A DNA stretch of 64,000 nucleotides from Candidatus Uhrbacteria bacterium (lineage in GTDB: Bacteria > Patescibacteriota > Patescibacteriia > UBA9934), in NCBI GenBank assembly GCA_003453595.1, contig DMOG01000026.1, forward strand, positions 6,567 through 70,566, in the 5' to 3' direction. Under the pieces are notes generated by a model. The model saw only the letters and a list, made by a program, of their open reading frames with translations, was not told the DNA's origin and ran no database searches. Positions 21,595-58,511 of this stretch are shown piece after piece. Both the position numbers and the translations under genes were made by a program. The stretch's first letter is position 1. Every line of letters starts with the position of its first letter.

Positions 21595-21598
21595 ATCT

Positions 21599-29700: not shown

Positions 29701-29802
29701 TGACGGCATATGGAATACAAATATATAAAAAGCCGTCAAAAGCGAACACCCCCATGACCGAAGTCTTGGGGGTGACGGAAGGGGGTTGAGAGAGGCCGCC
29801 GT

Positions 29803-30504: not shown

Positions 30505-30689
30505 TTTCTTTCTCCGATTTTGGCCCTTTCGAGCCGGGGGGTGGAAGGCCTTTCGGCCGTTTTTTGAAGGTGTGACAGTCGGGATTGAACCAACATGTCA
30601 ACAGAGCAGGATATCACAAAATAGGGGTTTTGTCAAGGGGTTGGGTTGTAAAATGCACTAAAACCAGCCATTTTTGGCTGGTTTTTGAG

Positions 30690-30925
30690 GTTTTGATAGG
30701 CAACCACCCCACACCCCTCCTTGGGAAGGAGGGGAATCGAGACTCGGTCTCTCCCCCTTAGTAAGGGGGTCTTTTGCACATCATCTATTGACAAATCTGG
30801 CAAAATGGGCTAAGGTTCAGCGTTCATTATCAAAGAAGCGGAAGCCTCAACAACCACCCCTCCTCCTTCGCACAAGGCTACGGAGGACTATCGCAATTCC
30901 TCCTTGGGAAAGGAGGGGAGCCTGA
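30690..30925. repeat. Two clusters of the palindromic repeat family between the divergent island-C lipoprotein genes (GATAGGCAACCACCCCACACCCCTCCTTGGGAAGGAGGGGAATCGAGACTCGGTCTCTCCCCCTTAGTAAGGGGG; ...CAAGGCTACGGAGG...TTCCTCCTTGGGAAAGGAGGGGAGC)
   Basis: Matches the family consensus and sub-units also found at 19195-19365 and 33230-33375. Confidence 0.7.
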
Positions 30926-31092
30926 GCCAAAAAGGAAAAAACTCGGCTTTTACAATATCTGCACAAAATCGTGAAGATATTATACAAGCCGAGTTCCGAT
31001 TCCCGAAACCGGCCCGTGCCCGTCCCTCAATCCCCTTTGCGGGGCGGAGCGGGCATCACCCCCAAAGGCGGAGACCCCGCCAAGGAGGCGCC

Positions 31093-31620
31093 ATGCGCAA
31101 CCTGATGTGTCTGATCACCATCCTGCTGGCCTCGGCCTGCACGGATCTGTCCGGAAACCAGAACGGCGAGGAGACCTACGTCCCGTCCATGTCGTCCGAC
31201 GACATGGACAGCGATGGCCTGGTCGACGGCTACGACTCCGACGAGATCGTCGGCCCCATCGCCAGCTACCCGACGGAGCTCTGGGTGAACGCTGGCGCCC
31301 TGTCCTTCCCCTGGATGGGTGAGGAGATGTCCTTCCAGTGCCGCGACCACAACGGCCGGGTGCTGGACTTCGCCTGGCAGTACTGGTACAACGGCGAGGC
31401 CACCCCCGCCAACACCTGGTTCGTCGCCTACATCGACGACCGGGCCGGCGAAGGAGACTGGCTCTGCGCCTTCACCCGCAACGACCGGTCGGTGCTCGAC
31501 ATCACCGTGTCCAACGACCCCCTGGTCTGGACGCACGGCGGCGTCTGCATCTACCAGGCCAACAACGGCGTCTACCAGGCGCCGGGCAACAACTCCTGCG
31601 ACGACATCCGAGGCCTCTAG
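31093..31620 (+). CDS. Lipoprotein, hypothetical, in high-GC island C; start assigned at MRNLMC with a CAAGGAGG RBS
   Basis: Has a lipobox LLASAC-TDLS, which is the same C-TDLS start as the divergent (DA)n lipoprotein. It contains Trp and Cys pairs, and GC is about 64%. Confidence 0.6.
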   Translation: MRNLMCLITILLASACTDLSGNQNGEETYVPSMSSDDMDSDGLVDGYDSDEIVGPIASYPTELWVNAGALSFPWMGEEMSFQCRDHNGRVLDFAWQYWYNGEATPANTWFVAYIDDRAGEGDWLCAFTRNDRSVLDITVSNDPLVWTHGGVCIYQANNGVYQAPGNNSCDDIRGL

Positions 31621-31699
31621 CCTCGACCGTCGCCCAATCCTTGAACCCCCGACAGCTCAGCTGAGTATCGGGGGTTCTGTGCGTTTAGGTTATAGAACT

Positions 31700-31812
31700 T
31701 GATAGGCAACCACCCCCCCCACCCCTCCTTGGGAAGGAGGGGAGACCGAGGTGCGGGGATCGCGTGATAGGCAACCACCCCTAACCCCTCCTTGGGAAGG
31801 AGGGGTGGTTAG
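31700..31812. repeat. Two tandem copies of GATAGGCAACCACCCC-N-CCCCTCCTTGGGAAGGAGGGG; the second copy overlaps and encodes the last about 10 codons of rfbD
   Basis: Sequence identity to the family was seen. The reverse complement of the repeat translates to ...NHPSFPRRG*, matching the rfbD ORF C-terminus. Confidence 0.75.
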
Positions 31813-42083: not shown

Positions 42084-43286
42084 CTAACCCTCTTTGATCT
42101 CCCCAATCAACTCTAAAAGCTTGGCTGTATATGACTCTAAACTGTAAGGATCGATGGTTGCTTTAATTTCTTGCGCTCGCTTGCCAAATTCTTCTTTTTG
42201 CTCATTCATAAGCACTATTTTCTTAACTAAATCATCAGCATTGCCTGGCTCAAATAAGAATCCATTTTTCCCGTCATCCATCAACTCGCCAACTCCACCA
42301 ATATCTGAGGCTATCACTGGCACCCCTGCGCTTAATGCTTCGTAAATAACAGTTGGTGAATTTTCATAGCATAAAGAAGGAACAATAAGGGCGTCAGCTG
42401 ATTTTAAGCAATCAATTAATTGTTCCATGGAAACAAATCCTAAATCAGTGATTGGTTTATTCGCTTTTGCTTCTCGCTCAACATAGGCCCGCTCAGTTCC
42501 CTCTCCGGCAATGTTTAAGAACGCATCAAATTTAAGTTTTTTAAATGCTTTAATTAACAACCTTATTCCTTTATGTCTTTCCAATTGACCAACAAATAAT
42601 AATCTCAATGAACCGGGCATTCTTTCAGTACGAATTTCAACATTAAAAGTCGGAGCAGGATTTGGTATCACAATTGATTTTACTCCTTTTAAAAATTTAA
42701 ACTCCTGATATTTTTCCAGTAAAAATTTTGATGGAAAAATTACGCAATCTGGTTTTCCAAATGCTCGCCGAGTAAAAAACCGATAAACAGCATAAGCAGG
42801 TTTAAAAATGGCTGATTCATGTTCCTTGCCATGAATCAAAAGTCCTGAAGGATAAATAAGCTGAAGATCATGCATAACATGGATATGAGGAATACCCATA
42901 TATTGAATAAGTCGCGATGTCCGTAATCCTATACCCTTTAAATTATGGGTGATGACAGCGTTAGGCTTTTCACGAAAAAGAACCTTTTCAATCTCAGTTG
43001 TTTCAAAAGAAATAATTGTATCAATAATATGCCACAGTAAACGAACAAGCCAAATATTCTTGTAATCATATAATGTGAAATACAAATTACGAGGAGAAAA
43101 TCGATAGATTCTTTCTGTCGCGTCTGTGTCTTTTTCCAAGGTACCCCGCTGGCTAATGGGCTTTCCAGTAATAACAAAAATATCTTGCCCTTTATCCATG
43201 AGCGATTCAACTGTCCGCACAACTACATGCTCAGCGCCGCCACGCTGGTAGGGCGGATATAAATTTGAAATGATTCCAATCTTCAT
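42084..43286 (-). CDS. Glycosyltransferase family 4
   Basis: Has 'ENSPTVIYEALSAGVPVIASDIGGVGELM', the GT4 E-x7-E region. Confidence 0.8.
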   Translation of the reverse strand: MKIGIISNLYPPYQRGGAEHVVVRTVESLMDKGQDIFVITGKPISQRGTLEKDTDATERIYRFSPRNLYFTLYDYKNIWLVRLLWHIIDTIISFETTEIEKVLFREKPNAVITHNLKGIGLRTSRLIQYMGIPHIHVMHDLQLIYPSGLLIHGKEHESAIFKPAYAVYRFFTRRAFGKPDCVIFPSKFLLEKYQEFKFLKGVKSIVIPNPAPTFNVEIRTERMPGSLRLLFVGQLERHKGIRLLIKAFKKLKFDAFLNIAGEGTERAYVEREAKANKPITDLGFVSMEQLIDCLKSADALIVPSLCYENSPTVIYEALSAGVPVIASDIGGVGELMDDGKNGFLFEPGNADDLVKKIVLMNEQKEEFGKRAQEIKATIDPYSLESYTAKLLELIGEIKEG

Positions 43287-43287
43287 A

Positions 43288-44415
43288 TTATCTAATTATC
43301 CTAACGCTTTGGTAGATTTCTTTCAATTTTTTGTAAATCGCTGTTTTGGCAAATTGATTTTCTACTCTGAGACGAGCTGACCGTCCAAATTTAAATCTCA
43401 GGTTATCGTCTACTAATAATTTTGTAATTGCCCCAGATAAATCCTTTGCATTGGCTGGTTTAATAATAAATCCAGTCTCACCCAAAGAAACAAGAGTGCG
43501 AACGCCAGGCAAGTTGGAAACGATTGACGGCAGTCCTGACGAAGCTGCTTCCAATGTTACCAGTCCAAACGCTTCACAGCAATTAATTGCTGGCAAAATG
43601 TGAAAATCTGACGCCTGATAATATTTTGGAAGATCGTCATGACCAACCCGACCCACAAAGTGTGTTCTATCTTTGATGTTTTTTTTCGCAGCTAATTCTT
43701 GATATGCTTTCTTTTTATTTCCATCACCAATTATTATTAAATGCCAATCAACATCAGTTATCAGCCCGGAACATGATTCTATTAGCACATCAACGCCTTT
43801 AAAATAATGTGCGTCATCAAGTCCACCCACAAAAATAATAACCTTTGCCTGATGATCAATTCCAAGCTCCTGTCGAATATCTTGCCCATCACCTGGAACA
43901 AATCTATCTACATCAACTGAGAATGGCAGTTCAATTAATTTTTTTGATGTTAAATTAACAGAATCTGCATAATCTAAAGAACTCACACAGATCATTTTGG
44001 CCAAGGCAAAAATAATTGGTTCGGCCAATAATCGATAAATTCGAAATATCCATTCTTGCCAACCTGTGGCAACCGTTTTCATGTGATAAGTAATAATCAG
44101 TGGCTTTCTCCAAATCAAAGCAGCCAGCGCCACGCTTTCTGCTCCACCGTAAAAAGGATAATGTAAATGAATAAGATCAAATTTTCGCAATTTCCAAATC
44201 AATTGCGGAATAAACGCAGCATTTCCCCATTGATATAAAGGTGTGATGCGATTAAGTATCTGATTGTCTGAGCCGGCTTCATCTGCTTTATACTGTGGGG
44301 TAAAAACAGTCACATCGAAATGATCATGCACCAAAGCCTGCGCATATTCCTGCGCCACATTTCCGATTCCACCAATGCGCGGTGGATAGACTGGAGTAAC
44401 CTGTGCGATTTTCAT
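43288..44415 (-). CDS. Glycosyltransferase family 4
   Basis: Has 'EAFGLVTLEAASSGLPSIVSNLPG'. Confidence 0.8.
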   Translation of the reverse strand: MKIAQVTPVYPPRIGGIGNVAQEYAQALVHDHFDVTVFTPQYKADEAGSDNQILNRITPLYQWGNAAFIPQLIWKLRKFDLIHLHYPFYGGAESVALAALIWRKPLIITYHMKTVATGWQEWIFRIYRLLAEPIIFALAKMICVSSLDYADSVNLTSKKLIELPFSVDVDRFVPGDGQDIRQELGIDHQAKVIIFVGGLDDAHYFKGVDVLIESCSGLITDVDWHLIIIGDGNKKKAYQELAAKKNIKDRTHFVGRVGHDDLPKYYQASDFHILPAINCCEAFGLVTLEAASSGLPSIVSNLPGVRTLVSLGETGFIIKPANAKDLSGAITKLLVDDNLRFKFGRSARLRVENQFAKTAIYKKLKEIYQSVRIIR

Positions 44416-44416
44416 A

Positions 44417-45496
44417 TCACCACTTTATTATTGGTAATAATCTTTTCCAAATCCATGTTATAACTTGATTACCGATTCGGGTTGCCAATGAATCAACTTC
44501 TTGATCCGCAATTGAACTTGATAATAATTTCATCCAATCTTTATCTAAAATCACACGCAAATGATTTGATCGTCGACGAATCTTCCACATTAATTTCCAT
44601 GTTCTTGGTTTAAAAAATTCTAAATCAGCTTTAAACTTACTTTTTATCCATCCGCCTTTGAAAGCTAAAATCCAAACTCCACACTCAATTAAATTTAAAA
44701 TCGGTAACAGGATAAGAAAACTTTGCCATTTTAAATAAGAAAACAATACCACTGCCCGATATGTTTCCATCCATTGAAACTTTTTTGGATTTCGCGAAAA
44801 CGAATAATCATGAAAAACATTTGCTTTGGTGGCAATAACATTTTTATATCCGGCAAAACGCAATCGCAAGCCAAATTCTAGGTCTTCGTGATACATGAAA
44901 AAACCTTCTTCTAATAATCCAACTTTCTTAAATACGGAAACTCGATAAATCACAGCCGCACCAGAAGCATAAAATATCTCTGCTTTGTTTTGATAATTTA
45001 CTTGAGAAAATAATTTCCCATTATCTCGCGCGTAACCAAATCCAGCCACATGCATCATCCCACCAGTCACATTAACCTTCTCCGGCTCTTGCCAAAATCT
45101 TACAAAAGCTTGAGCCGAGCCGATATTTATATCTGACTCCATAACATTGACCAGCTCTTTAATAGCACAAGCATCAAGTTTTAAATCACCATTATTTAAA
45201 AACACATAATCACAGCCGTGATTAATTGCCCATTTAATTCCCAAATTATTACCCCCAGAAAAACCAAGATTAACACCATTATCAATTAACACGACTTCTG
45301 GAAGATCTTGCCCGGATCGCGGTAAAACCTTTGTTTTTATTAAATCCTGCACTCCGTCCTTTGCCCCATTTGGGATCATTATAATCGAAATCCTATCCTG
45401 TGGATAAGTCTGATTACTCCAAGATTCAACAACCTCAGGTACATACCTAAGATCATTGTGACATAAATATATTATGGCAACTTTTGGTTTATTCAT
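44417..45496 (-). CDS. Glycosyltransferase family 2
   Basis: Has an N-terminal 'VAIIYLCHNDLRYVPEVVESWSNQTY' and a GT2-A fold pattern. Confidence 0.7.
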   Translation of the reverse strand: MNKPKVAIIYLCHNDLRYVPEVVESWSNQTYPQDRISIIMIPNGAKDGVQDLIKTKVLPRSGQDLPEVVLIDNGVNLGFSGGNNLGIKWAINHGCDYVFLNNGDLKLDACAIKELVNVMESDINIGSAQAFVRFWQEPEKVNVTGGMMHVAGFGYARDNGKLFSQVNYQNKAEIFYASGAAVIYRVSVFKKVGLLEEGFFMYHEDLEFGLRLRFAGYKNVIATKANVFHDYSFSRNPKKFQWMETYRAVVLFSYLKWQSFLILLPILNLIECGVWILAFKGGWIKSKFKADLEFFKPRTWKLMWKIRRRSNHLRVILDKDWMKLLSSSIADQEVDSLATRIGNQVITWIWKRLLPIIKW

Positions 45497-45830
45497 GGTC
45501 TTTTGGTTTTTCTACTCGATTAATTCCCACCTGACGAACAACATCAGAAATTTCTTTTTGCACTTTTTCTAAACGAACTAACACCTTATACAATCCATAA
45601 GCCAAAACAACAATGGCTATGTAAACAAGGAGATCGGCCCCGCGCTGGACACCAACCAATTGCGCGACTGGATCAGTTGCTTGAGGCAAAAGCGCAACAG
45701 CGATCACTACTAACCACAAAATCGCCCAAACAATAAACCAATACAAACTAACTTTGCGTGCTCGATATTGGCGGAAAGTAATAGCCAACGCAAAGGCGGC
45801 AAAAGCAATAAGCAGAATTTGAAATATCAT
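45489..45830 (-). CDS. DUF2304-like small membrane protein (partner of polyprenyl-phosphate GT2)
   Basis: Has two TM helices plus a C-terminal amphipathic tail, and overlaps both neighbouring genes. Confidence 0.55.
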   Translation of the reverse strand: MIFQILLIAFAAFALAITFRQYRARKVSLYWFIVWAILWLVVIAVALLPQATDPVAQLVGVQRGADLLVYIAIVVLAYGLYKVLVRLEKVQKEISDVVRQVGINRVEKPKDHE

Positions 45831-46504
45831 ATGTCAAGAAATTTACTCTTTAACAAATCTTTTACAATTATAAACGCTCCCCAAGAAGACTGACCTTTGG
45901 CCAGCGACTCTTTTGAATATTTAATTTCAACTGCGCACTCAACAAAACGCATTTTTTTTACTTTGATCAAATCAAGAATTTCCGATGCGTGTGCCATGCG
46001 GTCGCGAGTAATTTTAATTTCACGCGCAGCTTTTCGGGAAAGCGCACGGAATCCACAGTGAGTGTCTGATAATTTGATTCCTGAAATTATCAAAGTAAAT
46101 ACAATTCCAAGTTTTAAAATTATTTTACGCGACAATGGCATCTGTAATTTTCCAGATAGAAATCTTGACCCTAAAACAACATCAGCTTGATTATCAAGAA
46201 TCGGTTTTATCATTTTAGGAATATCTTTTCCTTGCATTTGTCCGTCAGCGTCAAAATGAACAACTATGTCTGCATTTAGATTCTCCAGCGCATAATCCGT
46301 TCCTGTTTGCAGCGCTGCCCCTTGCCCTCGATTTATAATATGACGCAAAACAAAAGCGCCAGCTTTAAATGCTTGCTCGCTAGTTTTATCTGACGAGCAA
46401 TCGTCAATAACAACGGCATCATCCACAAAAAGCAAAGCATCGCGCACAGCTTCTGCTACGCGCGATCCTTCATTATATGCAGGAATAATGGCCACAATCT
46501 TCAT
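45827..46504 (-). CDS. GT2 polyprenyl-phosphate glycosyltransferase (DPM1/ArnC/GtrB-like)
   Basis: Has 'VAIIPAYNEGSRVAEAV...VIDDCSSDKT...DADGQ', the DPM1-like pattern. Confidence 0.8.
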   Translation of the reverse strand: MKIVAIIPAYNEGSRVAEAVRDALLFVDDAVVIDDCSSDKTSEQAFKAGAFVLRHIINRGQGAALQTGTDYALENLNADIVVHFDADGQMQGKDIPKMIKPILDNQADVVLGSRFLSGKLQMPLSRKIILKLGIVFTLIISGIKLSDTHCGFRALSRKAAREIKITRDRMAHASEILDLIKVKKMRFVECAVEIKYSKESLAKGQSSWGAFIIVKDLLKSKFLDI

Positions 46505-46513
46505 ATCTGCACT

Positions 46514-47536
46514 TTACATCTGCTCACCTTCCCCAGTCAATAAAATTTTATTTGCCCGAATGTACTCAATAGTTTTCTGCAACCCGTCCTCAAGTCTAAC
46601 GACCGGGAGCCAGCCAAGTTTTTCTTTTGCCAAACTTATATCCGGCAAACCAAGTTCAGACAAAAATGCGAGTTGCTCAGCAAAACTAATATGCGAAGTC
46701 GAGGATGTTAAATCAATTATTTTTTGGGCAACATTAACTAGTTTAAAATCTTGATCACTGCCAAAGTTCATTACTCGTTCTTCGCCGGCATAATCCATCA
46801 AGCGTCTTATGCCGTCAACAATGTCAGTGACATACACCAGTGATGTTTTAAATTCCTCTGTGCCATTGATAACAACATTTTCATTATTAAGCGCTTGCAA
46901 AACAAAATCAGGGATCTGTTGTCCATCAAACAACGGCATGCGTGGTCCATAAGTTCGAAAAATGCGCGCAATCTTGTAATCGATTTTGTGAACTTCGCCA
47001 TATGTGTAAAACATTGTTTCCGCAAAACGACGACCTTCATCATAACAAGCCCGTGGAGTGAGGTGATCAACGCATCCAATCTCGTTCTCTTTTAAAAATT
47101 TCATGTCATCTTTGCGTGGCCCGTAAACAACAGAACTTGAGGATAGTAAAATTTTTGCTTTGTACTTCACTGCCAGATCTAAAATGTTACGCGTACCAAC
47201 CGAACTTGTTAACAATGTTTTCTCTTTGAGTGTGTTGAAGTTTTTTATTGAAGTTGGCACTGCCAAATGATAAATCTCTTGAATGCCCTTAAAAGGTATC
47301 TTGAATGGTTCAAGCTCTGTAAATCTTTCCAGATCAAATGGTTCGTTGATATTCAAACGTAAAAACTGAAAATTTACATCTCTTAAAAATGGATCGATAT
47401 TATTAACACTTCCAGTAGCAAAATCATCAATACAAATAACTTTGTAATCTGACTTTAGAAGTTCGGCGCACAAAAATGATCCGATAAATCCAGCACCGCC
47501 AGTAACAATTGCAATCTTTTTTTCTTGATTAGGCAT
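46514..47536 (-). CDS. NAD-dependent epimerase/dehydratase (UDP-glucuronate decarboxylase / UXS-like SDR)
   Basis: Has 'IAIVTGGAGFIGSFLC' and 'IYHLAVPTS'. Confidence 0.7.
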   Translation of the reverse strand: MPNQEKKIAIVTGGAGFIGSFLCAELLKSDYKVICIDDFATGSVNNIDPFLRDVNFQFLRLNINEPFDLERFTELEPFKIPFKGIQEIYHLAVPTSIKNFNTLKEKTLLTSSVGTRNILDLAVKYKAKILLSSSSVVYGPRKDDMKFLKENEIGCVDHLTPRACYDEGRRFAETMFYTYGEVHKIDYKIARIFRTYGPRMPLFDGQQIPDFVLQALNNENVVINGTEEFKTSLVYVTDIVDGIRRLMDYAGEERVMNFGSDQDFKLVNVAQKIIDLTSSTSHISFAEQLAFLSELGLPDISLAKEKLGWLPVVRLEDGLQKTIEYIRANKILLTGEGEQM

Positions 47537-47596: not shown

Positions 47597-49207
47597 TCAC
47601 TCTGCGAGTTCTGCCAACATCTGCCGTGTCTTCATCTGACTTGTATCTACTTCAAATACTTGATCGATTCGATCTCCTAGTTCAAACTTTGTAAAAAATG
47701 TTGGTTCTATGTCAATCACATAATCTGCCCAATCACTGCCAAACATTTCAGTAGCGATTTCTTCACTGTTTATTTTTCGCAAAACCGGAACAAGGTCATC
47801 ATCTCCGCTGGCTAACATATAAACACTGTTGTCAGATTGAATTTTTACCAGTGCAACTCCTGCTTTTGGTAACATAACTCCTCCCAAATCAAACTGGGCA
47901 AGCTCATCATCGTTCATGACTTTAATATCAGAGAACGAATTTGACCAAGTAAAATATGCATTTGAGTCTAAAAATACTCTTCGCTTTCCAGCTGAGTCAA
48001 TATAATAAACCGAGGAAAATGAATTGCTTTTTATCAAATCTCCTGACGCATACCCTTCCACTGGAATTGATACTGGCTGCAAATCTTGTTGTGCTTGTGC
48101 TGATGCATAACTAGCTGCCAGCACAATCGCTTGATTAACATTTAATCGACCAGCACCAAATTGGTTACGATATTTACCACTTAAACTCATGGGGTCAACT
48201 GAAAGCTTTAATATATTCCGAATATCAGTTGGACTTAATGTTGGATATTTGGCCAGAATCAAGGCAGCTGAGCCAGCCACAACCGGCGAGGCCACTGAGG
48301 TTCCAGACCAGTGATCACCATATAAAGTGCTATACCCTGCTGATGGTTCATAATAAAACAATCCATACATATCTTCCCCTGGCGCTGATAAATCTGCACA
48401 AGAACTGCCGTAATTTGAAAACAAAGAATGTTGATCTGACGCGTCTGAGGCTGCAACACCAATCACCCAATCCTCATCACCATCATTGTAGCAGGCAGGA
48501 TAAACTGGATTATTATTGATATTCACTCCTTCATTACCAAGCGCAGCAACTACAACTACTCCGTGATTAAAGGCATTCATCACAGCTTTGCGCAAAGCTG
48601 GATCATCAGTGCTTCCTGAAAAACTCAGATTAATAACATCAGCACCATTTTCCACTGCATAATTAATCGCCTCTCGAGCGTCCATTGAATTGCCTGATCC
48701 GGTTTTATCCAACATCCGCACTGCCATAATGCGCGCATCCCAAACAACACCAGTTAGACCTTCGTGATTATTTCCAACAGCAGCAATCAATCCTGAAATA
48801 ACTGTGCCATGTGATACAGCGTCAGGGTCTGACCCACGCGATGTGTCTGGAGTGGGATCATTGTCACTATCAATAAAATCCCAACCATAAACATCGTCCA
48901 CAAATCCATTATCATCGTCATCGATGTTATTATCAGCAATCTCACCTGTATTTACCCAAATATTGTCCATAAGATCTGGATGATCAAGATCAACGCCAGT
49001 GTCCAATACAGCAATCACAACCGAACCATCACCTGTTTTGATGTCCCATGCCTCTGGAGCATCAATCATATCCAAATACCATTGCTCGTCATACTCAGTA
49101 TCATTTGGCGTCCGAGCAAAAACAACCGCAGGAAGCATACATAAAAGCAATCCTGCGGAAATTATTGTTTTAATTGTTTGTTTCCTCCTATTCACACTAT
49201 TCTTCAA
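47597..49207 (-). CDS. Secreted S8 subtilisin-like serine protease with a C-terminal domain of about 110 aa shared with the giant surface protein
   Basis: Has the catalytic triad contexts 'VLDTGVD', 'HGTVISG', and 'GTSVASPVVAG', plus a signal peptide. Confidence 0.85.
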   Translation of the reverse strand: MKNSVNRRKQTIKTIISAGLLLCMLPAVVFARTPNDTEYDEQWYLDMIDAPEAWDIKTGDGSVVIAVLDTGVDLDHPDLMDNIWVNTGEIADNNIDDDDNGFVDDVYGWDFIDSDNDPTPDTSRGSDPDAVSHGTVISGLIAAVGNNHEGLTGVVWDARIMAVRMLDKTGSGNSMDAREAINYAVENGADVINLSFSGSTDDPALRKAVMNAFNHGVVVVAALGNEGVNINNNPVYPACYNDGDEDWVIGVAASDASDQHSLFSNYGSSCADLSAPGEDMYGLFYYEPSAGYSTLYGDHWSGTSVASPVVAGSAALILAKYPTLSPTDIRNILKLSVDPMSLSGKYRNQFGAGRLNVNQAIVLAASYASAQAQQDLQPVSIPVEGYASGDLIKSNSFSSVYYIDSAGKRRVFLDSNAYFTWSNSFSDIKVMNDDELAQFDLGGVMLPKAGVALVKIQSDNSVYMLASGDDDLVPVLRKINSEEIATEMFGSDWADYVIDIEPTFFTKFELGDRIDQVFEVDTSQMKTRQMLAELAE

Positions 49208-49877
49208 TACAAGTGTCTTCTACCACTTGCATATCTTGTTCAATTGACTCCACTGGTCCGCTTTCATTCTTAGCAAGAGTAAGAGCAACATTATAATGAT
49301 CCAATGACTTCTGACACTGACCATGATCTGCATAATATTCTCCCAATTGCACCATCACCCACTGAGTTTGTCCGATTGTATCAATATAATCAAGTAAAAG
49401 ATCTTCAACTTCTAAGCCGCGTGTTTCATCTCGCTCTATCACCTTTATTACATCCCGGTAAAACTCCTCCATTGGGGAAAGTTCAAGCGCAGTGCGAAAT
49501 GCTTCTTCTGCTTTATCCCAATCTTCCATCATGTAAACAATGTTTCCATAGGTATTCCAAGCAGCTGGATTGATTGAATTGTAAGTAAAGTATTCCTCAT
49601 AAATTTCCCGAGCCTGTACCAAATCGCCAAGATAATACGCGTCAGTTCCAGCAATCTCATAAAGATTAAGGTCAGGACGCTCATCAGCTTTTTTTGATGC
49701 AGTAATTGATGAAAGAGATTGTGCAAGCTGTTGTTGTAAAGTGGTAACAGTCTCCGGGTCTGATTGCACCTCCATGTGCGTTACAAGACCATAGTACGGA
49801 TTTGTAGATTGAAAGAGCCAATATCCTCCAGCAACAATTATCACAATTGCTGCCAAAATAAGTGGGAGTTTTTTCAT
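49197..49877 (-). CDS. Secreted or membrane-anchored TPR-like protein
   Basis: Has an N-terminal TM/signal segment and helical repeats with Y/W-rich TPR-like spacing. It overlaps the S8 gene start. Confidence 0.45.
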   Translation of the reverse strand: MKKLPLILAAIVIIVAGGYWLFQSTNPYYGLVTHMEVQSDPETVTTLQQQLAQSLSSITASKKADERPDLNLYEIAGTDAYYLGDLVQAREIYEEYFTYNSINPAAWNTYGNIVYMMEDWDKAEEAFRTALELSPMEEFYRDVIKVIERDETRGLEVEDLLLDYIDTIGQTQWVMVQLGEYYADHGQCQKSLDHYNVALTLAKNESGPVESIEQDMQVVEDTCIEE

Positions 49878-49938
49878 AAGTAGATATGTGATTTATGCCT
49901 ATATTTTATCGGATTATAGAAGATATGGCAACCAAGTT

Positions 49939-50003
49939 GGGGTCAGGTCTTTACTCGGAACACCCAAATTGATAAAAGGTGTTCCGAGTAAAGACCTGAC
50001 CCC
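49939..50003. repeat. Long-stem hairpin element, copy 2 (same 26-bp arms as 21530-21594, loop CAAATTGATAAAA)
   Basis: The arms are identical to copy 1. Confidence 0.8.
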
Positions 50004-50018
50004 ATTTGCGCAAAACCA

Positions 50019-50045
50019 AAACCCCGCCGAAGCGGGGTTTTGGTA
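50019..50045 (-). terminator. Intrinsic terminator for the giant surface protein gene (CCCCGC-cgaa-GCGGGG, T-run on the minus strand)
   Basis: A hairpin plus a run of Ts in the minus orientation lies about 40 nt after the stop. Confidence 0.7.
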
Positions 50046-50081
50046 CTTGATTGCTCAAGATTTGAGGATTTCTAATCGAGA

Positions 50082-53000
50082 TTAGAATTGGATTGCACCA
50101 CCAGAGATAGGCAAGCTATCAACTAGGTATGCGCCCCATCCTTGCTGAGCAGCTGTAAGTCCAGCTACTCCATCGTCTTCCCAATAGAATGAATCAGGTC
50201 GGCGAAGAATGTTTTGTGTAGTTACTGGCAATGTCATATTTCGTCCAAGGTAACCACGAACCAAGGTAACGGTTAGTGTGTCTACGCTTGTAACAAGTAC
50301 GATTTCCTCAGTTGCGTCACATGTTGTGTTAGCACCTGCAAGACATAGCTGATCACCTTCTGTAATTCCAGTTACAGCACTTAAGATAAGTGTGGTATCT
50401 GCAATTGTTATAGCTGGGTCATCGATTGTAACTGTTGGATTTACCCATGTTGAGAACTCGGTTGCTCCAACAAGGGAGAACTGAATAGTGTCATGGTTTG
50501 TTGAAGAAGCTCCCACTGAGTCAAAGTACAAAGCAAATGTGTATGTGGTTCCGGCTGGAACTACAAGTGCCTCTGCGTCTGTATCAAACTCCAACTGAAC
50601 ATAGTCAACCTTTGCATCTTGTGCAAGATCGATTGTTGTTGCGCCTTCTACGAATGTCCACTCGGCATCATCGTCAAGAGCAGTTCCTGTTCCGGTTGTT
50701 GTCAAGTTGTACAAGTCAAAGTCTGAAGTCTGGATATCATCTCCTGTTACTCCATCATCTGGATCCCATGTATTCCACAATGTTGTTTCGTTATCTGTTG
50801 AAGAGAGTTTCCATACAAAGTCATGGATAATCACATCTTCATTTGCAGATGCGGCAACATTAAAGCGGTAAACTTCTTGGTCACCAGGAACCTTTGTTCC
50901 AGATGGGCTTGATGAACTCAAGCTGATTGTTGGTGTTGTTTCCTTAACAATGAATGTTGCAATTCCGTCTGTTGAATGCAAGTCGTCTCCAACAGCACTT
51001 ACATCATCGTCATCTAATGTTGATCCTGAACCAACTCCGACAGCTCGGAAGTTATCATCATTGGTTGCATCAATAAAGAATCCCATACGAACCTTTTCGC
51101 CAGAAGTTGAAGAACCGCCAGCGTTTCGGTCAATAACAGGAACATTAACAAATACTTCAACTGTAGCTGGATCATCTGTAGTTACATAGATTGGAGCTGT
51201 TGACAAGCTAAACTTGGCTTCATTTCCGTTCATTGTAGCAGTCTTTGATCCAGTTGTGCCATTTTCAAGTGGGTACTCAATTGTAACCAATGAAATGTTG
51301 TTTGCGTAACCAGAGTCATTACATGTTGTTGTTAAACATGAACCTGGAGTGACATCGTCAACATTAACATCGTCGTCCTCACCCTGCTCTTCTGAAACAG
51401 TGAAGGTGCTGACCTGGAATGCTTCGTTTGTTGCTGTGATTCTGTATGTAGCTACATGACTATCTGTTGTGTTTGACAACAAGAAATCTGCGCTTGGTGT
51501 TCCAGAATCGGCAGTAACTGCGATTGATCCAGCTGGAGATACTGTTACGATAACAGCACTTGTTAATGTTGTTCCACCGTTTAGAGCGTCAGCAGCTGCG
51601 CCTCCGCTGGTAAGTGGGTCAACATCTGAACCTCCATCATCTTGGGCAACAATATCCTCTGAAGCATCAGCGATATCAAATGAGAAGTAATCGCTATCAG
51701 CATCAGATGGATTTGCAAAGTTACAGTAGAGCTGTACTTTTTGTGTTGCGCCAGCTGCGAGTGTCCAATTTACAGAACTAAATGTAATAGTCTGTCCATT
51801 GCTTGCTGGTGATTTTGGTCCGGCAAGAAGAGCATTGTTAATGTCGTAGATTGAACATGAACTTACGAAATCATTAACATCATATCCTGAAGCTCCACCG
51901 ATTGTGGATGTTTCAGAACCATCATCGTCTCCATAGGCAGAGAACGCGATGCTGGTAATTTCAACATCTCCAGAGTCTCCAGCAACAAGGTTGAAATCAA
52001 CAACATTCACATCTGTCATTCCATGAATAGTTGTGAAATCTGTTGGTGTTGAAGCCAAAGACATTGTTAATGAAGCACTTCGAGCTGTTTGTGCATAACC
52101 TGTAATATCAGCTGATGGCACAACATCAGTTGCGTTTGTAAGAGTGTCACCATTGGTGTCCTCAGCTACAAATCCTGAGATATCTAGAGTTGCTCCAAGA
52201 GCTGTTCCGGTTGTGATTGTGTCATCAACATCAACAACAACTTGGATATTCAATGTTTCACCAGCGCTCATTTCAAAGTCATCAGTGAAATCAATTGTTT
52301 GTGCACCATCGTTTGTTCCGTCAGCTCCACAGACAACAGTAATACAATCAAGTTCCAATGGACCCATGATTGTTGCTCCTGTATCTGCGTTAACAAGCTT
52401 GATGTCAGAAATGTTTCCTTCTGCACCAGTGTTAATAAGACCATCGCTATCATTTCCTGAATCATCGCCTGGAGTGAATGGATTATTATTTCCATCATCT
52501 TCAGCACCAACGATAATATCAAGATCTTTGATAGTGATATCCTGAACAGTTGTAAATGTAAACTCAAGAAGAACTTGGTCATTACTGTTTGTTCGGATAT
52601 CACCAGCACTTGGTCCAGATAGAGCAAATGTTACATCTCCACCTTGGATTGTTGAGTAGTTACACTCATCAGATCCTCCGCCAGCACATGTACCACCGTC
52701 ATATCCAGTGATAGTTGCTGCCATTGGGTAGAAATATTCTGCACCTTCTACTTGAACATCAATAGCATTGTCCATGTAAACCTTAGCAGTGTCAGCTGCT
52801 TCTCCTCCGATATCTGCTGTAACTGTAAAAGTCTTACTCTGACCCTTAGCGATATTGTAGTCCTCATCAAAATCAAAGACTACAAGCTTGCTTCCGATAT
52901 ATTCTCCTGTAGCAACCAAAGTTGTACCTGTGTACATCTTATAGTCACTATGATCAGCGCCGTTATCAACCTTCAATGTTAATGATTGAACATTTCCAGC

Positions 53001-54341
53001 TTCAGTTGCAGTTGTGATCTTGAAAGATCCAATTGTTGCATCGTTCTGGCCCAAAGATGGGTTGTCAATTGTTCCTGTATCAAGAATTGTTACAGTTCCA
53101 ACTGTTGTTCCAGAAACTGAGAATGTATTTCCGTCTAGTGGGAAGTTGCCTGCTACATCACCGGCTGATACAACATCTCCATCCTCGTACAAGCCAAATT
53201 GGATTTCATCACCTACGCTTGCAGAAATTGTTACGCGAACAGAAATTGTTCGTGTTTCATTTGCTGCCAATGCAAGGCCAAGACTTCCAAAAGTTGCCTT
53301 TCGAGTTGAAGAGTTTACTGAACGAGCTTCTGTCAAACGAGTGTTATCTTCGTAAAGATAAACATTGGAAACATCGGTTGATGAAGAAAGTCCAATCATC
53401 TTAACAGCGATCTGGCTAACTGTTGTTGCCTCAGATCCTGCTTTGATATCAAACTTCAAAACTTCAACTGTGTTTGCGTTTGTTGGAACTGAAGTTCCAG
53501 CTGGGTTTGAAGATGAAAGTTTTACTGTTACATCTCCTGTTGCGACTACATCGTCAACACCACCCTGTTGTGAACAGTCTGTAAGCTCTGAAACTTCAGA
53601 AGTGATATCACTTCCTGCTGTCAAAGCTGAGTCATCAATGCCAGTTCCGTTAAGGAACATAGCTGTTTGCATTTTGTTTGCAGTACGTCCAGCTGATGAA
53701 ACCATAAGCTTTTCGCCACCCCATGCAAGGTAATAGTCAGAGCCATCTTTGTACATCATTCCGTCGTATGCGGTTGCTGATGTTAGAGATACTCCTTCTG
53801 AATAATCTGACCAGAAAACATCGGCAACATCATGAATTTGTGTTGCCCAATCGCTTCCTGCTAGTGCTTCTGCAGTAGCAGCGTCTTCAATCCATAGGAT
53901 TGATCCGTCTGTTGAAACTGCGTAAACTTTAGGGTTAGATGTAATCTTAACCCAGTATGAACCTGGTCGGTAAACAATGTTTCCGCCAAGAGCGATATCA
54001 GCTAGAGCGCTGTCTGAGATTGTCTCGACACCACTGAAATCTGAATACCATGTGAAGTAAGTCTTCTCGTTAGGGAATGTGTAACGCATACCGTCTGGTG
54101 CGTAGTAGTAAACGGTTGAGAGAGACTCACTCTTTATAAGGTCACCTGCTGTTGCAGCACTAACTGTGCTTGGAGCAAGGACCGCACTCAAAGAACCAAG
54201 AACCATTGCAGCAATAGTTACCACTGCAAAGATTCGGTTTCGGAGTTGAAATGCATCGTGCATAATCAATTCTATCCTTTCTATTATTATGAGTAATGGC
54301 GTATTTTCGGCCATGCGGCCTCGACCTTTCGGAAAATACAC
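50082..54341 (-). CDS. Giant secreted cell-surface protein (about 1400 aa; probable start at MHDAFQ, 54263) rich in Thr/Ser/Asp/Gly beta-strand-like repeats; adhesin/S-layer-like
   Basis: Has a signal peptide 'IFAVVTIAAMVLGSLSAVLA', low-complexity Ig-like composition, and an N-terminal domain homologous to the S8 protease C-terminus. Confidence 0.6.
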   Translation of the reverse strand: MYFPKGRGRMAENTPLLIIIERIELIMHDAFQLRNRIFAVVTIAAMVLGSLSAVLAPSTVSAATAGDLIKSESLSTVYYYAPDGMRYTFPNEKTYFTWYSDFSGVETISDSALADIALGGNIVYRPGSYWVKITSNPKVYAVSTDGSILWIEDAATAEALAGSDWATQIHDVADVFWSDYSEGVSLTSATAYDGMMYKDGSDYYLAWGGEKLMVSSAGRTANKMQTAMFLNGTGIDDSALTAGSDITSEVSELTDCSQQGGVDDVVATGDVTVKLSSSNPAGTSVPTNANTVEVLKFDIKAGSEATTVSQIAVKMIGLSSSTDVSNVYLYEDNTRLTEARSVNSSTRKATFGSLGLALAANETRTISVRVTISASVGDEIQFGLYEDGDVVSAGDVAGNFPLDGNTFSVSGTTVGTVTILDTGTIDNPSLGQNDATIGSFKITTATEAGNVQSLTLKVDNGADHSDYKMYTGTTLVATGEYIGSKLVVFDFDEDYNIAKGQSKTFTVTADIGGEAADTAKVYMDNAIDVQVEGAEYFYPMAATITGYDGGTCAGGGSDECNYSTIQGGDVTFALSGPSAGDIRTNSNDQVLLEFTFTTVQDITIKDLDIIVGAEDDGNNNPFTPGDDSGNDSDGLINTGAEGNISDIKLVNADTGATIMGPLELDCITVVCGADGTNDGAQTIDFTDDFEMSAGETLNIQVVVDVDDTITTGTALGATLDISGFVAEDTNGDTLTNATDVVPSADITGYAQTARSASLTMSLASTPTDFTTIHGMTDVNVVDFNLVAGDSGDVEITSIAFSAYGDDDGSETSTIGGASGYDVNDFVSSCSIYDINNALLAGPKSPASNGQTITFSSVNWTLAAGATQKVQLYCNFANPSDADSDYFSFDIADASEDIVAQDDGGSDVDPLTSGGAAADALNGGTTLTSAVIVTVSPAGSIAVTADSGTPSADFLLSNTTDSHVATYRITATNEAFQVSTFTVSEEQGEDDDVNVDDVTPGSCLTTTCNDSGYANNISLVTIEYPLENGTTGSKTATMNGNEAKFSLSTAPIYVTTDDPATVEVFVNVPVIDRNAGGSSTSGEKVRMGFFIDATNDDNFRAVGVGSGSTLDDDDVSAVGDDLHSTDGIATFIVKETTPTISLSSSSPSGTKVPGDQEVYRFNVAASANEDVIIHDFVWKLSSTDNETTLWNTWDPDDGVTGDDIQTSDFDLYNLTTTGTGTALDDDAEWTFVEGATTIDLAQDAKVDYVQLEFDTDAEALVVPAGTTYTFALYFDSVGASSTNHDTIQFSLVGATEFSTWVNPTVTIDDPAITIADTTLILSAVTGITEGDQLCLAGANTTCDATEEIVLVTSVDTLTVTLVRGYLGRNMTLPVTTQNILRRPDSFYWEDDGVAGLTAAQQGWGAYLVDSLPISGGAIQF

Positions 54342-54431: not shown

Positions 54432-55544
54432 TTATTGTGTAATTTGTGGATCTGAACTTTCGTTTTCCTGATTCTCTTCTACAATTTCTACCTCCTCTAC
54501 CACTTCTTCCACTTTTTCTTCTACATCCTCTTGTAAATTAAGCACTGTCATCACCTGCTCTTCGATTGATGCCAGTCTTGCTTCGATACCAAGAAGAGTT
54601 GTGTCTGCATCGCGCAACATGTCAAAGGCACCACGATAGGCACCGGCCGCAAATGAATTCATAGCTTCGGCAACATCATCGGTAGCTTGATCTATTTCAA
54701 ACTGGAGTCTAAGGATATCGTCGCCTGACAAAATACCTTCTATTGCATTTTCATTTATAATTGCACTAATTGTTTGCACACGACCTGTGTCAAATGTTTG
54801 GCGTTCGCGTAGATCTGTGTATTCATTTTTAAATGATCGATTAAGCGCAACTCCTGATTCTTGAGTTTCGGTTTGCTCATGCACATCCATGATTGCGTCC
54901 ACTGCTGAGTTTGAAACTGCTGTGGTTGTTTCTGTGGCATCCTTGGCAGATTGATCGCCAATGGCATTAAGCTCGGCTTGCAATGTGCTGATTTTTTCAT
55001 CAAGAACACTGGCAACTGTGAGAGTATTTGCATCCTGATTATTCTTTAGCTGTGTTAGAGCGTCTCCGGCTTTTACCACCTCTGTTTCCAATGCATGCAC
55101 TGTTTCAGCAAGATAACGCTCTGAACGACCATCATCTATTTGTTGCAATGACTGAATTTCTACCATGCGACGCTGGGCAAATTGAGTATGCAATACAGCG
55201 CGTTGATCTTGTGGGGAGATAATTAATTGAGCTTGCTCAGTAATTAACTTCACATTATAAAGAGTGTCGCCAGGGATACTACCAACCGCAGCCTTTACTG
55301 TTGTGAACCAGCCACCAAATAAAAGCGCGAAAATAACAAGACCCACGCCGATTGGGCGTGTGGCAAAAGAAAAAGCATTCCATTTTATGTAAGCAACTTG
55401 TGCGTCACCAATGACTCGATCATCATGATGACCAATAGCAGTAAGTAATTGAGTCTTGGCCTGATTTTGCCCAACACCATCAACCCATCCAGCATCTGGA
55501 TGATTTTTGAGGGATTTGAGTTGTGCGATCACTTCGCGACTCAT
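54432..55544 (-). CDS. DUF5667-like membrane protein (putative anti-sigma factor partner)
   Basis: Has a single TM helix 'IGVGLVIFALLFGGWFTTV', a long coiled-coil C-terminal region, and lies immediately downstream of an ECF sigma gene. Confidence 0.5.
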   Translation of the reverse strand: MSREVIAQLKSLKNHPDAGWVDGVGQNQAKTQLLTAIGHHDDRVIGDAQVAYIKWNAFSFATRPIGVGLVIFALLFGGWFTTVKAAVGSIPGDTLYNVKLITEQAQLIISPQDQRAVLHTQFAQRRMVEIQSLQQIDDGRSERYLAETVHALETEVVKAGDALTQLKNNQDANTLTVASVLDEKISTLQAELNAIGDQSAKDATETTTAVSNSAVDAIMDVHEQTETQESGVALNRSFKNEYTDLRERQTFDTGRVQTISAIINENAIEGILSGDDILRLQFEIDQATDDVAEAMNSFAAGAYRGAFDMLRDADTTLLGIEARLASIEEQVMTVLNLQEDVEEKVEEVVEEVEIVEENQENESSDPQITQ

Positions 55545-55546
55545 AT

Positions 55547-56074
55547 TTATTTTTTAGCGCGCTCTTGAAGCGCTTTTTTTGCTCTATGCAATAGTACCCG
55601 GACACTGCCTGTTGTTTTTTCCAACGATTCAGCAATCTCACCAATACTCATCTCGTCTAAGAACCTCATGACAAGCACATCCCGATATTCCTCTCTTATT
55701 TCTCGTAAAAGCTTGATAAGAGCTTGCTGATCCTGCTGATCTGACAATTCTTCTGCCAAATCATGTTCATCTGTCTTATATTCTGCTTCTTCCACGCCAA
55801 CCTCGATTTTGCGCTTGCGATAGTAGTCAGCAATGACATTTCTTGCGATTCTGTAGAAAAGAGCGGCTGGATTATTGACTAGGGAGGATGTCGCATATTC
55901 CCAACCTCTAAGAAAGACTTCAGCTGCTAATTCATCTGCATCTTCCTTGCTAGGCACGCGGAATATAATGAAGCGACGAATGCGGGAAATATAAAAGTCA
56001 TACAGTTCTCCGTATGCTCCTGTATCTCGAAACCTAAAAACTCGAAATAGTAGAAATTTGTTTCGATGTCGCAT
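55547..56074 (-). CDS. ECF-type RNA polymerase sigma-70 factor
   Basis: Has region 2 'RNVIADYYRKRK' and region 4 'VLVMRFLDEMSIGEIAESLEKTTGSVRVLLHRAKKAL'. Confidence 0.8.
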   Translation of the reverse strand: MRHRNKFLLFRVFRFRDTGAYGELYDFYISRIRRFIIFRVPSKEDADELAAEVFLRGWEYATSSLVNNPAALFYRIARNVIADYYRKRKIEVGVEEAEYKTDEHDLAEELSDQQDQQALIKLLREIREEYRDVLVMRFLDEMSIGEIAESLEKTTGSVRVLLHRAKKALQERAKK

Positions 56075-56534: not shown

Positions 56535-58511
56535 GTGAAAAAATCAATCCTTACAATCTTTGTCCTAGCACTAGTCCTGATCCCACTAGTTACTGTTTTG
56601 TCGCAAGAACCAAATGCCATCAAAACAGCGAACTATTTTCTATTGTCAGGTTCAACTCTTAATGACAGTCTAACCTTGGAAACACTATCTGCGTACGACC
56701 TACTGGTACTGCCGGCTGAAGCTCAAGTATACAATCCAAATTTTTCCAATGACATCCGGGCATTAAACCCGGATATTGTGTTACTTGCCTACATCCCGAC
56801 TGTTAGCTACAACTCAATTTGGCAAGACAGACTGCATAAGGAACTTTCCTCTGGAATACAAAGTGATTGGTGGTTAAAAAATAAAACCGGATCAACAGTC
56901 TCGATCTGGTCTGGAACCTATGCGTTGGATTTAACATCTGGCTGGAATAATTACCTAGCCGAATTTGTTGCTTATGAAGTTTTACACAATGATTATTGGG
57001 ACGGGGTTTTTTACGATGAAGTAAGCGACAGTATTAGTTGGGTCGGATCTGTCTCGCTTTCCAATGGATCGATAAGTATTGATAGCGCTTGGCAAAGTGC
57101 ATACACACAACTATTTGCAAAAACGCGATCGCTGGTTGGTTTGGGAAAAATCATAATCACCAACGGAAGCTCAAACCTGGCCTATACCCCGTATGTTAAT
57201 GGTCGAATGTTTGAGTCGTTCCCTACTCCTTGGGAAGGCAATGGATCATGGAACACAAACATTAGTAGTTATCTGACTCTGGAAAATTCAGTCGCTTATC
57301 AACCAATCATCTTAATAAACGGTGATACGAGCAACACGGGCAACTCAACTGATTACCAAAATGTTCGATTTGCACTTTCAAGTACGCTTTTGGGTGATGG
57401 ATTTTTCGGCTTTGATTATGGAACCCAGTCTCATGCTCAACTTTGGCGATATGATGAATATGATGCCTACATTGGATCTGCTAAGGGTGACGCAACCCAA
57501 GAGTCAACTGGAATTTGGACCCGTGAGTTTACCAATGGAAAAATTGTTGTAAATCCAACAACCTCTTCGCAAACAATCAAGCTCGATGGCGAGTTTGAAA
57601 AACTTCATGGTGAACAAGATCCAGATTTTAATGACGGATCAATTATTTCGCGTTTAACTCTCGACTCTAAAGACGGCGCAATCCTTGTGCGTCCGATTGC
57701 TGAAATTCTTGGTGGAGTATTTTTAAACGGTGCATTTGCCAGAGTTTTTGACGCACAAGGTGAAACCTATCGCACTGGATTTTTCTCATACAACGATGCC
57801 TATGAAGGCGGTACTCAAGTGATAACTGCTGATATTGATTTTGACATTAATGATGAAACAGTGGTCGCCAATGCTAATCAAGTTTTTATTTACAATGAGG
57901 ATGGTAGTTTGCATGCCAGCTTTTATCCATACACTGAAAATTATAAAGGTGGTGTTAATATTTCAATCGGTGATTTGGAAAGTGATGGTTCTGTAGAAAT
58001 TATAACCGGAACTGAAAATGGCGGTGGAGCCCAAGTTCGAATCTTTAATTCTGACGGAGTTCTTATTAATCCAGGTTTTTTCGCCTATGACAATGTGTAT
58101 CGCGGTGGAGTAAATGTGGCGGTTGGAGACTTAAATGGCGACGGAACCAGAGAAATTATTTGTGGAGCCGGAACCGAGGGCGGACCACATGTTCGCATTT
58201 TTAACAAAGACGGAAGATTAATAAACCCAGGATTTTTTGCTTATGACATCAACTTCCGTGGCGGAGTTAATGTAGCCACTGGTGACCTAAACGGCGACGG
58301 CATTGATGAAATTATTACTGGTCCAGGACTTGGCGGTGCTCCAGAGATCAAAGTCTGGAATAATAATCGAGAGCAACTTGGTTCTTCATTCTGGGGTTCT
58401 GACACCAATAGTTGGCGCGGAGTTGAAGTTTCAACCGCTGATCTTGATCATGACGGCACTGACGAAATTATCGCCTTTACCCAAGATGTATTCACATTTT
58501 CGAACTATTAG
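56535..58511 (+). CDS. Secreted protein with an N-terminal glycoside-hydrolase-like (GH114/GHL-type) domain and C-terminal FG-GAP repeats
   Basis: Has a signal peptide and repeated 'GDLNGDGxxEII' FG-GAP motifs. The N-terminal domain assignment is tentative. Confidence 0.55.
   Translation: MKKSILTIFVLALVLIPLVTVLSQEPNAIKTANYFLLSGSTLNDSLTLETLSAYDLLVLPAEAQVYNPNFSNDIRALNPDIVLLAYIPTVSYNSIWQDRLHKELSSGIQSDWWLKNKTGSTVSIWSGTYALDLTSGWNNYLAEFVAYEVLHNDYWDGVFYDEVSDSISWVGSVSLSNGSISIDSAWQSAYTQLFAKTRSLVGLGKIIITNGSSNLAYTPYVNGRMFESFPTPWEGNGSWNTNISSYLTLENSVAYQPIILINGDTSNTGNSTDYQNVRFALSSTLLGDGFFGFDYGTQSHAQLWRYDEYDAYIGSAKGDATQESTGIWTREFTNGKIVVNPTTSSQTIKLDGEFEKLHGEQDPDFNDGSIISRLTLDSKDGAILVRPIAEILGGVFLNGAFARVFDAQGETYRTGFFSYNDAYEGGTQVITADIDFDINDETVVANANQVFIYNEDGSLHASFYPYTENYKGGVNISIGDLESDGSVEIITGTENGGGAQVRIFNSDGVLINPGFFAYDNVYRGGVNVAVGDLNGDGTREIICGAGTEGGPHVRIFNKDGRLINPGFFAYDINFRGGVNVATGDLNGDGIDEIITGPGLGGAPEIKVWNNNREQLGSSFWGSDTNSWRGVEVSTADLDHDGTDEIIAFTQDVFTFSNY

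Follow-up and report, generated by a model that had tools for sequence, protein, structure and literature searches.

A domain shared by exported proteins of Candidatus Uhrbacteria, a putative non-covalent anchor in the cell envelope

Why should a secreted protease and a giant surface protein, encoded in close succession, carry the same module, one at its C-terminus and the other at its N-terminus? The question is raised by a 64,000-nucleotide (nt) stretch of DNA from a Candidatus Uhrbacteria bacterium (assembly GCA_003453595.1, contig DMOG01000026.1, positions 6,567 to 70,566 of the forward strand), referred to here as the window, in which the genes for an S8 (subtilase) protease (47597..49207, minus strand) and for a giant protein that is a candidate S-layer protein (50082..54263, minus strand) are found. 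An original prediction made from the letters of the DNA had described a shared domain of about 110 amino acids (aa) without a recognised name and had proposed for it a role in cell-surface anchoring or docking, for example through a wall polymer made by the neighbouring glycosylation locus. Drawing on sequence comparison, structure prediction and analogy with known anchors, we read the domain as a lineage-specific, non-covalent cell-envelope anchor for secreted proteins, with a probability of roughly 60%.

The shared domain and its family

Composition-adjusted BLASTP aligned the C-terminus of the S8 protease with the N-terminus of the giant protein at 45 identities over 129 positions (35%; 54% positives; E 1e-22), and the strings quoted in the original prediction are present in both proteins. 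The similarity that it had noticed is genuine, and the shared unit, at 125-130 aa, is slightly longer than it had estimated. Exactly two copies were found by phmmer among all six-frame open reading frames (ORFs) of the window, with reciprocal E-values of 2e-18 and 1e-19, and none of these ORFs held a third. The copy at the mature N-terminus of the giant protein (53775..54155, minus strand; aa ~63-189 in ORF numbering) was delimited by BLASTP, phmmer, the family alignment and an AlphaFold2 (AF2) model. That at the C-terminus of the protease (47648..48055, minus strand; aa ~385-520), delimited by BLASTP, phmmer and an AF2 model, is followed by a short helical tail (47600-47647, minus strand). 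The mechanically called ORF of the giant protein (50082-54341, minus strand; 1419 aa) begins with a GTG at 54341; translation probably starts instead from the ATG at 54263, with AAAGGA in front of it. Reading from this ATG, a predicted signal peptide of 36 aa (MHDAFQLRNRIFAVVTIAAMVLGSLSAVLAPSTVSA; 54156..54263, minus strand; read from the sequence) ends in VSA, with cleavage before ATAGDLIK, so that the domain, which begins with these residues, would form the extreme N-terminus of the mature giant protein.

Both copies were modelled with confidence. For giant protein aa 62-240, the predicted local distance difference test (pLDDT) was about 90 over the first 130 residues; for protease aa 380-536, the mean pLDDT was 93.4 and the predicted template modelling score 0.81. 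Each model displays the order three strands, helix, strand, helix, strand, repeated twice in tandem, and the domain is accordingly described, at the level of these predictions, as a tandem of two β/α sub-modules of ~58 residues each. Comparison of the N-terminal and C-terminal halves with hhalign yielded a weak 20-column match (E 0.0015, probability 17%); because the duplication is weak in sequence, the two-sub-module description rests mainly on predicted secondary structure. A possible third, partial sub-module (MYKDGSDYYLAWGGEKLMVSS...; 53682..53756, minus strand), corresponding to model strands 135-153 at pLDDT 59-73, is confined to the giant proteins and is conserved in the alignment of the giant orthologues P0001-P0003.

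A resemblance produced by chance or by composition deserves attention here, since Ser, Thr and Asp abound in both proteins and both are strongly acidic. Against such an origin stand the composition adjustment under which the E-value was obtained, the thousands of homologues that have Tyr-Tyr, Phe, Trp, Phe, Gly, Ala and Trp in common at invariant positions of the family alignment, and the confident, compact models of both copies (pLDDT ~90 and 93). Chance or compositional similarity is excluded on these grounds, the objection that the match is restricted to low-complexity sequence fails with it, and the domain is confirmed as a genuine, folded module.

Whole proteins and 18 isolated domain sequences were scanned against Pfam-A (up to E 10) and NCBIfam. 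The Pfam scan, which the original prediction had proposed as a check, gave no family consistent across the 18 sequences; scattered matches to NYN, NdhS and AstE_AspA are due to chance, as none recurs across members of the domain family. NCBIfam held no match for the domain, and a domain-only profile returned nothing meaningful from the PDB sequences, in agreement with the earlier failure to recognise a named domain. Cupredoxin matches obtained from PDB sequences with a full-length alignment come via a partner domain and not via the shared one. At E<=10, the S-layer homology (SLH) family PF00395 matched neither the window proteins nor the 18 domain sequences, and none of CWB2 (PF04122), LysM, SH3b, PG_binding_1 or the other named wall-binding families matched the domain; PG_binding_1 was seen solely as a separate partner domain in one family member. 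Profiles for PKD, Big_1 and similar immunoglobulin (Ig)-like domains likewise failed to match the domain, and the models are mixed β/α, not an all-β sandwich, which disposes of the objection that the segment is a generic PKD or Big domain. Big_1 occurs merely as a neighbouring domain in some members. Homologues are annotated as 'hypothetical protein' throughout in the source records, and no description of the domain was found in the literature searched on Uhrbacteria S-layers, DUF5667, PlyCB in Patescibacteria, and giant or S-layer proteins of the candidate phyla radiation (CPR). Regardless of its ligand, the domain merits a Pfam or InterPro entry.

The first search returned 37 relatives, most of them proteins of ~260 aa in which the domain lies between a signal peptide and a C-terminal cupredoxin; in two of the 37, a Big_1/invasin domain is followed by the shared domain. 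When a profile restricted to the domain (A2) was scored against 1.84 billion cluster representatives, 5,491 were retrieved at E<=1e-3 and 2,408 at E<=1e-30. A pattern scan of one genome per GTDB species located 561 domain-encoding stretches, the best 80 of which provide the locus statistics given below. Where the titles of these 80 loci are informative, they all name Candidatus Uhrbacteria, Parcubacteria or Patescibacteria groups, and the family appears to be lineage-specific, having been seen here solely in Uhrbacteria-type bacteria. Many loci (L003, L009, L011 and L014, among others) are titled 'uncultured Gammaproteobacteria bacterium' and hold an Uhrbacteria-type cassette, one of them being a chromosome of ~1.0 Mb; these titles are evidently placeholders or wrong taxonomic labels.

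An architecture census of the 150 best representatives placed the domain at the N-terminus in 108, at the C-terminus in 25 and at both ends in 12. Among 122 N-terminal cases, 109 have a hydrophobic stretch resembling a signal peptide, and its end lies 4-19 aa (median 11) ahead of the domain. Partner domains are all of extracellular types and include cupredoxin, Big_1/invasin, Big_5/7, fn3, S8, trypsin, GH44 and a chagasin-type inhibitor, as well as ice-binding-like, DUF3048, CarboxypepD_reg, PG_binding_1, cohesin and β-propeller domains. Stand-alone proteins of 181-196 aa, consisting of a signal peptide and the domain, also exist, and no neighbour pattern emerged from the loci around their genes. 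As far as sequences can tell, this is the architecture of a targeting or retention module, not that of a catalytic domain or a terminal sorting signal. Tandem arrays of three ~280-aa proteins with a signal peptide, the domain and a cupredoxin were noticed in L060, L066 and L069 (about 4200-6700 in each), the cupredoxin being assigned from related proteins that were checked; they suggest wall-tethered blue-copper redox proteins in Uhrbacteria.

Structural likenesses of the predicted fold are weak but reproducible. Foldseek returned nothing below E 1e-3 from the PDB, and its ten best matches (E 3e-3 to 0.2) were all EccB proteins. Structural comparisons gave values of 5.4 and 5.2 for EccB1, 3.6 and 4.0 for the Streptococcus mutans domain 3l9a, 3.5 and 4.0 for the wall-binding domain of the endolysin LysIME-EF1, 2.6 and 3.4 for PlyCB, and 2.7 and 3.0 for the wall-binding domain of Lys170, so that EccB repeats, PlyCB and enterococcal endolysin wall-binding domains stand out as the best matches of the models. 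The PlyCB-like or EccB-repeat fold is a module of ~55 residues with a four-stranded sheet and two helices, and in its predicted models the shared domain may be likened to a tandem of such modules. No such relationship is seen at the sequence level, where the domain profile matched neither the EccB family PF05108 nor any PDB sequence. EccB itself, a component of ESX (type VII) secretion with repeats R1-R4, differs further in that its central domain and N-terminal membrane anchor are missing from the shared-domain proteins, and no ESX genes were seen in the locus.

SLH motifs in the slot of the domain, and the conserved locus

The best argument for function came from the rest of the giant protein. 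Its body (aa 261-1419) has 159 homologues, nearly all of ~1,250-1,450 aa and from Uhrbacteria or Patescibacteria. One protein from Candidatus Gracilibacteria, P0386, is homologous from giant protein aa 269 onward (34% identity over 944 aa, E 2e-125), and the homology reaches a similar C-terminal tail. Ahead of this body, P0386 has three SLH motifs (aa 31 to about 200) behind a signal peptide, in the slot held by the shared domain in the window. The order of the Gracilibacteria locus is the giant gene, a gene for a small TPR-like (tetratricopeptide repeat) lipoprotein, and a gene for a 489-aa protein with an SLH C-terminus; compared with one another, these two SLH regions align at an E of about 1e-11 to 1e-12. 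When both were used as phmmer queries, no SLH region was detected in the window or in ~0.92 Mb of other loci, and no copy of the shared domain was found in the Gracilibacteria locus. Set beside the window, this implies one plan in both lineages, with an anchor at the N-terminus of the large protein, a small TPR protein in between, and a matching anchor at the C-terminus of the accessory protein; on the sequences, the layouts differ solely in the type of anchor.

SLH motifs are non-covalent wall-polymer anchors of S-layer and S-layer-associated proteins in Gram-positive bacteria, among them Bacillus and Clostridia; their binding to pyruvylated secondary cell-wall polymer depends on CsaB. Their presence in this slot, being that of an established wall anchor, argues most directly that the shared domain does the same job, and it makes the giant protein a probable S-layer or major surface protein. 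Circumstantial signs of an S-layer role are its size, its acidic composition rich in Thr, Asp, Ala, Gly and Ser, its own terminator and its SLH-bearing homologue. A candidate S-layer protein family common to Uhrbacteria and Gracilibacteria, with interchangeable anchors, would follow. The tail of the giant protein (window 50082-50200), SFYWEDDG...W..YLVDSL.....F-stop, resembles the P0386 tail, SFIWSDNS...W..FLVDNL.....F-stop, a possible conserved terminal motif.

The locus is also conserved among relatives of the window. A gene for an extracytoplasmic function (ECF)-type sigma factor (window 55547-56074, minus strand) and a DUF5667 gene (54432-55544, minus strand) stand ahead of the giant gene in some 70 of the 80 related loci, a near-constant pairing that suggests dedicated regulation of the surface protein; no mention of DUF5667 was found in the literature searched. 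A TPR gene and then an S8 protease gene follow the giant gene in many of the 80. The next large ORF bears a C-terminal domain copy in 17 loci, at least 14 of which also score for the S8 catalytic domain, and in the rest of the 80, two or three small cupredoxin-type proteins that all bear the domain are encoded in tandem. Three divergent genomes (L082, L083 and L084; among them, giant-protein identity to the window is 59%, 46% and 32%) keep the whole sigma-DUF5667-giant-TPR-S8 cassette, followed as in the window by genes for an epimerase/dehydratase, GT2, DUF2304, GT2, GT4 and GT4.

In the window, this glycan cluster lies downstream of the protease (42084..47536, minus strand) and comprises an NAD-dependent epimerase/dehydratase gene, a 225-aa GT2, DUF2304, a 359-aa GT2 and two GT4 genes. 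Its 225-aa member resembles the polyprenyl-phosphate GalNAc synthase PpgS most closely (E 1.2e-53, under the equivalog cut-off), and the gene after it encodes a DUF2304 protein of 113 aa (E 2.7e-23). DUF2304 corresponds to GacJ (bioRxiv 10.1101/180810), and GacJ/Rv3632 is a small membrane protein that activates GacI/PpgS in the attachment of side chains to wall polysaccharides (bioRxiv 10.1101/180810; PMC8327497). From sequence, the GT2-DUF2304 pair fits the description of a GacI/GacJ-type (PpgS/Rv3632-type) lipid-linked sugar synthase. The link to a neighbouring glycosylation locus, as originally proposed, thus draws support from synteny conserved in three divergent genomes; the same synteny does not distinguish a glycan that is the ligand from one that modifies the giant protein. 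The GacI/GacJ-like cluster is one candidate source of the ligand, or else may glycosylate the Ser/Thr-rich giant protein.

Two established anchoring systems offer functional analogies. As with SLH, the shared domain is a terminal module that a very large surface protein has in common with accessory exoproteins from its own locus, and it occupies the very slot that three SLH motifs hold in the Gracilibacteria homologue. It differs from SLH in having no sequence relationship to it, as reflected by the missing PF00395 match, and in its predicted tandem β/α fold; the SLH fold is a three-pronged helical spindle. In Clostridioides difficile, SlpA and its maturing protease Cwp84 share the wall-binding module CWB2, and the locus adjoins wall-glycan synthesis genes. 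The combination of a main surface protein and a secreted protease with a common module near wall-glycan genes is paralleled here; there is no PF04122 match, and the protease is a serine S8 enzyme, in contrast to the cysteine protease of C. difficile. The anchoring principle is not new; the domain itself represents a new, large, lineage-restricted family of putative wall-anchoring modules.

The anchor reading and its rivals

Uhrbacteria are monoderm, ultra-small bacteria. If the domain is an anchor, the giant acidic protein would be exported by Sec and its signal peptide removed, whereupon the new N-terminus, the domain, would bind peptidoglycan or a wall-linked glycopolymer. With this module at one or both ends, the S8 protease and many further exported proteins, among them cupredoxins, Ig-like proteins, hydrolases and protease inhibitors, would be kept on the same layer. 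The anchoring role put forward in the original prediction finds indirect support in the mobility of the domain among secreted proteins, the wall-binding-like folds of its models, the exchange with SLH and the synteny with the glycan cluster.

Several observations weigh against it. Every functional step of the model, wall binding included, is one that we infer. Across the family, the domain is slightly less acidic than the rest of the protein (median isoelectric point 5.5 vs 4.5); both window copies are acidic (~4.1), so that a basic anchor on an acidic body is not a clear-cut signature and no electrostatic sign of binding to an anionic polymer is seen in them. In two divergent loci, the S8 protease ends in FG-GAP repeats and not in the shared domain (L082 16152-18248; L084 15517-17544). 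About 10 TPR-less loci have no epimerase homologue in the ~1 kb downstream of S8, and the link to the glycan cluster is therefore not universal. The displacement argument comes from one SLH-bearing homologue among 120 homologues listed; the third gene of the Gracilibacteria locus does not encode an S8 protease, the third genes of the two layouts not being orthologous, and the TPR proteins of the Uhrbacteria and Gracilibacteria loci show hardly any similarity (E 0.023), so that their orthology is not demonstrable. Peptidoglycan binding by EccB repeats, finally, is itself only a suggestion in the literature (PMC4769845).

FG-GAP repeats were also seen in a GHL15 glycosyl-hydrolase-like protein encoded beside the window cassette (56535-58511), and they may constitute a second interchangeable surface module.

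The structural likenesses can be turned toward a different role, in which the domain binds the S-layer lattice or itself instead of a wall polymer, with accessory proteins docking onto the giant protein and the giant protein self-assembling via the domain. Its closest relatives in structure form oligomers or serve in assemblies (an octameric ring in the case of PlyCB, the periplasmic ESX assembly in that of the EccB repeats), the giant protein itself bears the domain, and its presence at both ends of 12 of the 150 best representatives would suit cross-linking. We nevertheless regard such a docking or oligomerisation module as unlikely, given that SLH, which fills the slot in the Gracilibacteria homologue, is a wall-polymer anchor and not a lattice contact, and that stand-alone forms and small cupredoxin fusions occur in loci without a giant gene nearby. 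The likeness to lysin wall-binding domains, which recognise the wall of a target cell, raises instead the prospect of a carbohydrate-binding module for foreign surfaces, either the wall of a host bacterium in episymbiosis or an environmental polysaccharide. Many Patescibacteria are epibionts, and the fusion partners include hydrolases and proteases able to act on a host or substrate. This role, too, seems improbable to us: the commonest small partner is cupredoxin, a redox protein sensible solely at the surface of the cell that makes it, the exchange with SLH within the giant-protein family speaks for self-anchoring, and genes with which the organism makes its own glycans are linked to the cassette.

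That the domain serves the protease, as a pro-domain, an inhibitor or an exosite steering S8 to the giant protein for maturation, is in our estimation very improbable. Most domain-bearing proteins are not proteases, some S8 orthologues in the same cassette lack the domain, and similarity to potempin was no better than for many unrelated small β folds. Returning to the wall anchor, a more ambitious version of it would give Uhrbacteria a wall-anchoring system of their own, in which a PlyCB/EccB-like module reads a lineage-specific glycopolymer from the GacI/GacJ-like cluster, defines the non-covalent surface proteome and replaces SLH. That proteome would take in the S-layer protein, its maturation protease, blue-copper redox proteins, hydrolases and inhibitors, and SLH would be the anchor used by related CPR classes on a homologous S-layer protein. 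We offer this extension tentatively and consider it rather doubtful in its entirety.

Molecular work on the envelope of CPR/Patescibacteria has hardly begun, and their large surface proteins are for the most part annotated as 'hypothetical'. A family of thousands by which exported proteins kept at the surface can be recognised in one major CPR lineage, and a testable link between the domain and a conserved wall-glycan cluster, would give such work a point of entry. If the anchor reading is true, the domain could serve as a specific probe for the labelling, sorting and microscopy of uncultivated Uhrbacteria cells.

Genes and repeats of the window

The giant protein matched nothing in Pfam or NCBIfam. 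Its isoelectric point is about 4; roughly every second residue is Thr, Asp, Ala, Gly or Ser, and Cys and Met are few. A clear rho-independent terminator (AAACCCCGCTTCGGCGGGGTTTTGGTTTTG; 50011..50040, minus strand), found by reading the sequence, lies 3' of the giant gene, which places this gene and the TPR-S8 genes in separate transcription units and makes the earlier wording of 'adjacent operons' a fair one. Consensus scans added little: promoter-like sites occurred at the shuffled level, and the 14 terminator-like sites found (6.2 expected, only about twice the shuffled level) included none that was usefully placed. Between the giant and S8 genes lies a gene for a small membrane-tethered TPR protein (49197..49877, minus strand; 226 aa). 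The protein has a hydrophobic segment at its N-terminus, and the last 11 nt of its gene are shared with the beginning of the S8 gene.

The secreted protease has 536 aa, with a signal-like N-terminal segment visible in the translation, and Peptidase_S8 (PF00082) covers aa 62-353 (E 8.5e-53; 180 bits vs a cut-off of 21.8). Its best NCBIfam match is mycosin at 183.6 bits, under the cut-off of 278.75, and it is therefore not a mycosin equivalog. Mycosin is the protease of type VII secretion, and EccB, the best fold match of the domain attached to this enzyme, contacts mycosin in ESX complexes. As no other ESX genes were seen in the locus, the pairing of a mycosin-like protease with an EccB-like domain may be a coincidence or a distant evolutionary echo.

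Elsewhere in the window, two islands of 60-69% GC (~19400-21600 and ~29700-31700) stand out from the 38-42% GC of the rest. Their ORFs include lipoprotein-like proteins (MRYFLITMIAALVGC... and MRNLMCLITILLASAC...), and one ORF contains a long (Asp-Ala)n run that derives from a 12-nt tandem repeat at 30169-30415. No Rfam family matched at the islands, which may be of foreign or mobile origin or may hold genes with an unusual composition. A 65-nt palindromic element with 26-bp perfect arms (GGGGTCAGGTCTTTACTCGGAACACC) and a 13-nt loop occurs twice in identical form, just after the terminator of the giant gene (49939-50003) and at the edge of the first island (21530-21594); no such element is expected by chance. 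Four copies of a 41-nt element ending in the hairpin CCCCTCCTT-GGGAAGGAGGGG (19287, 30694, 31702 and 31765) flank the islands. Further repeats comprise an 86-nt sequence at 26517 and 27374 and a 79-nt tandem at 29460 and 29558.

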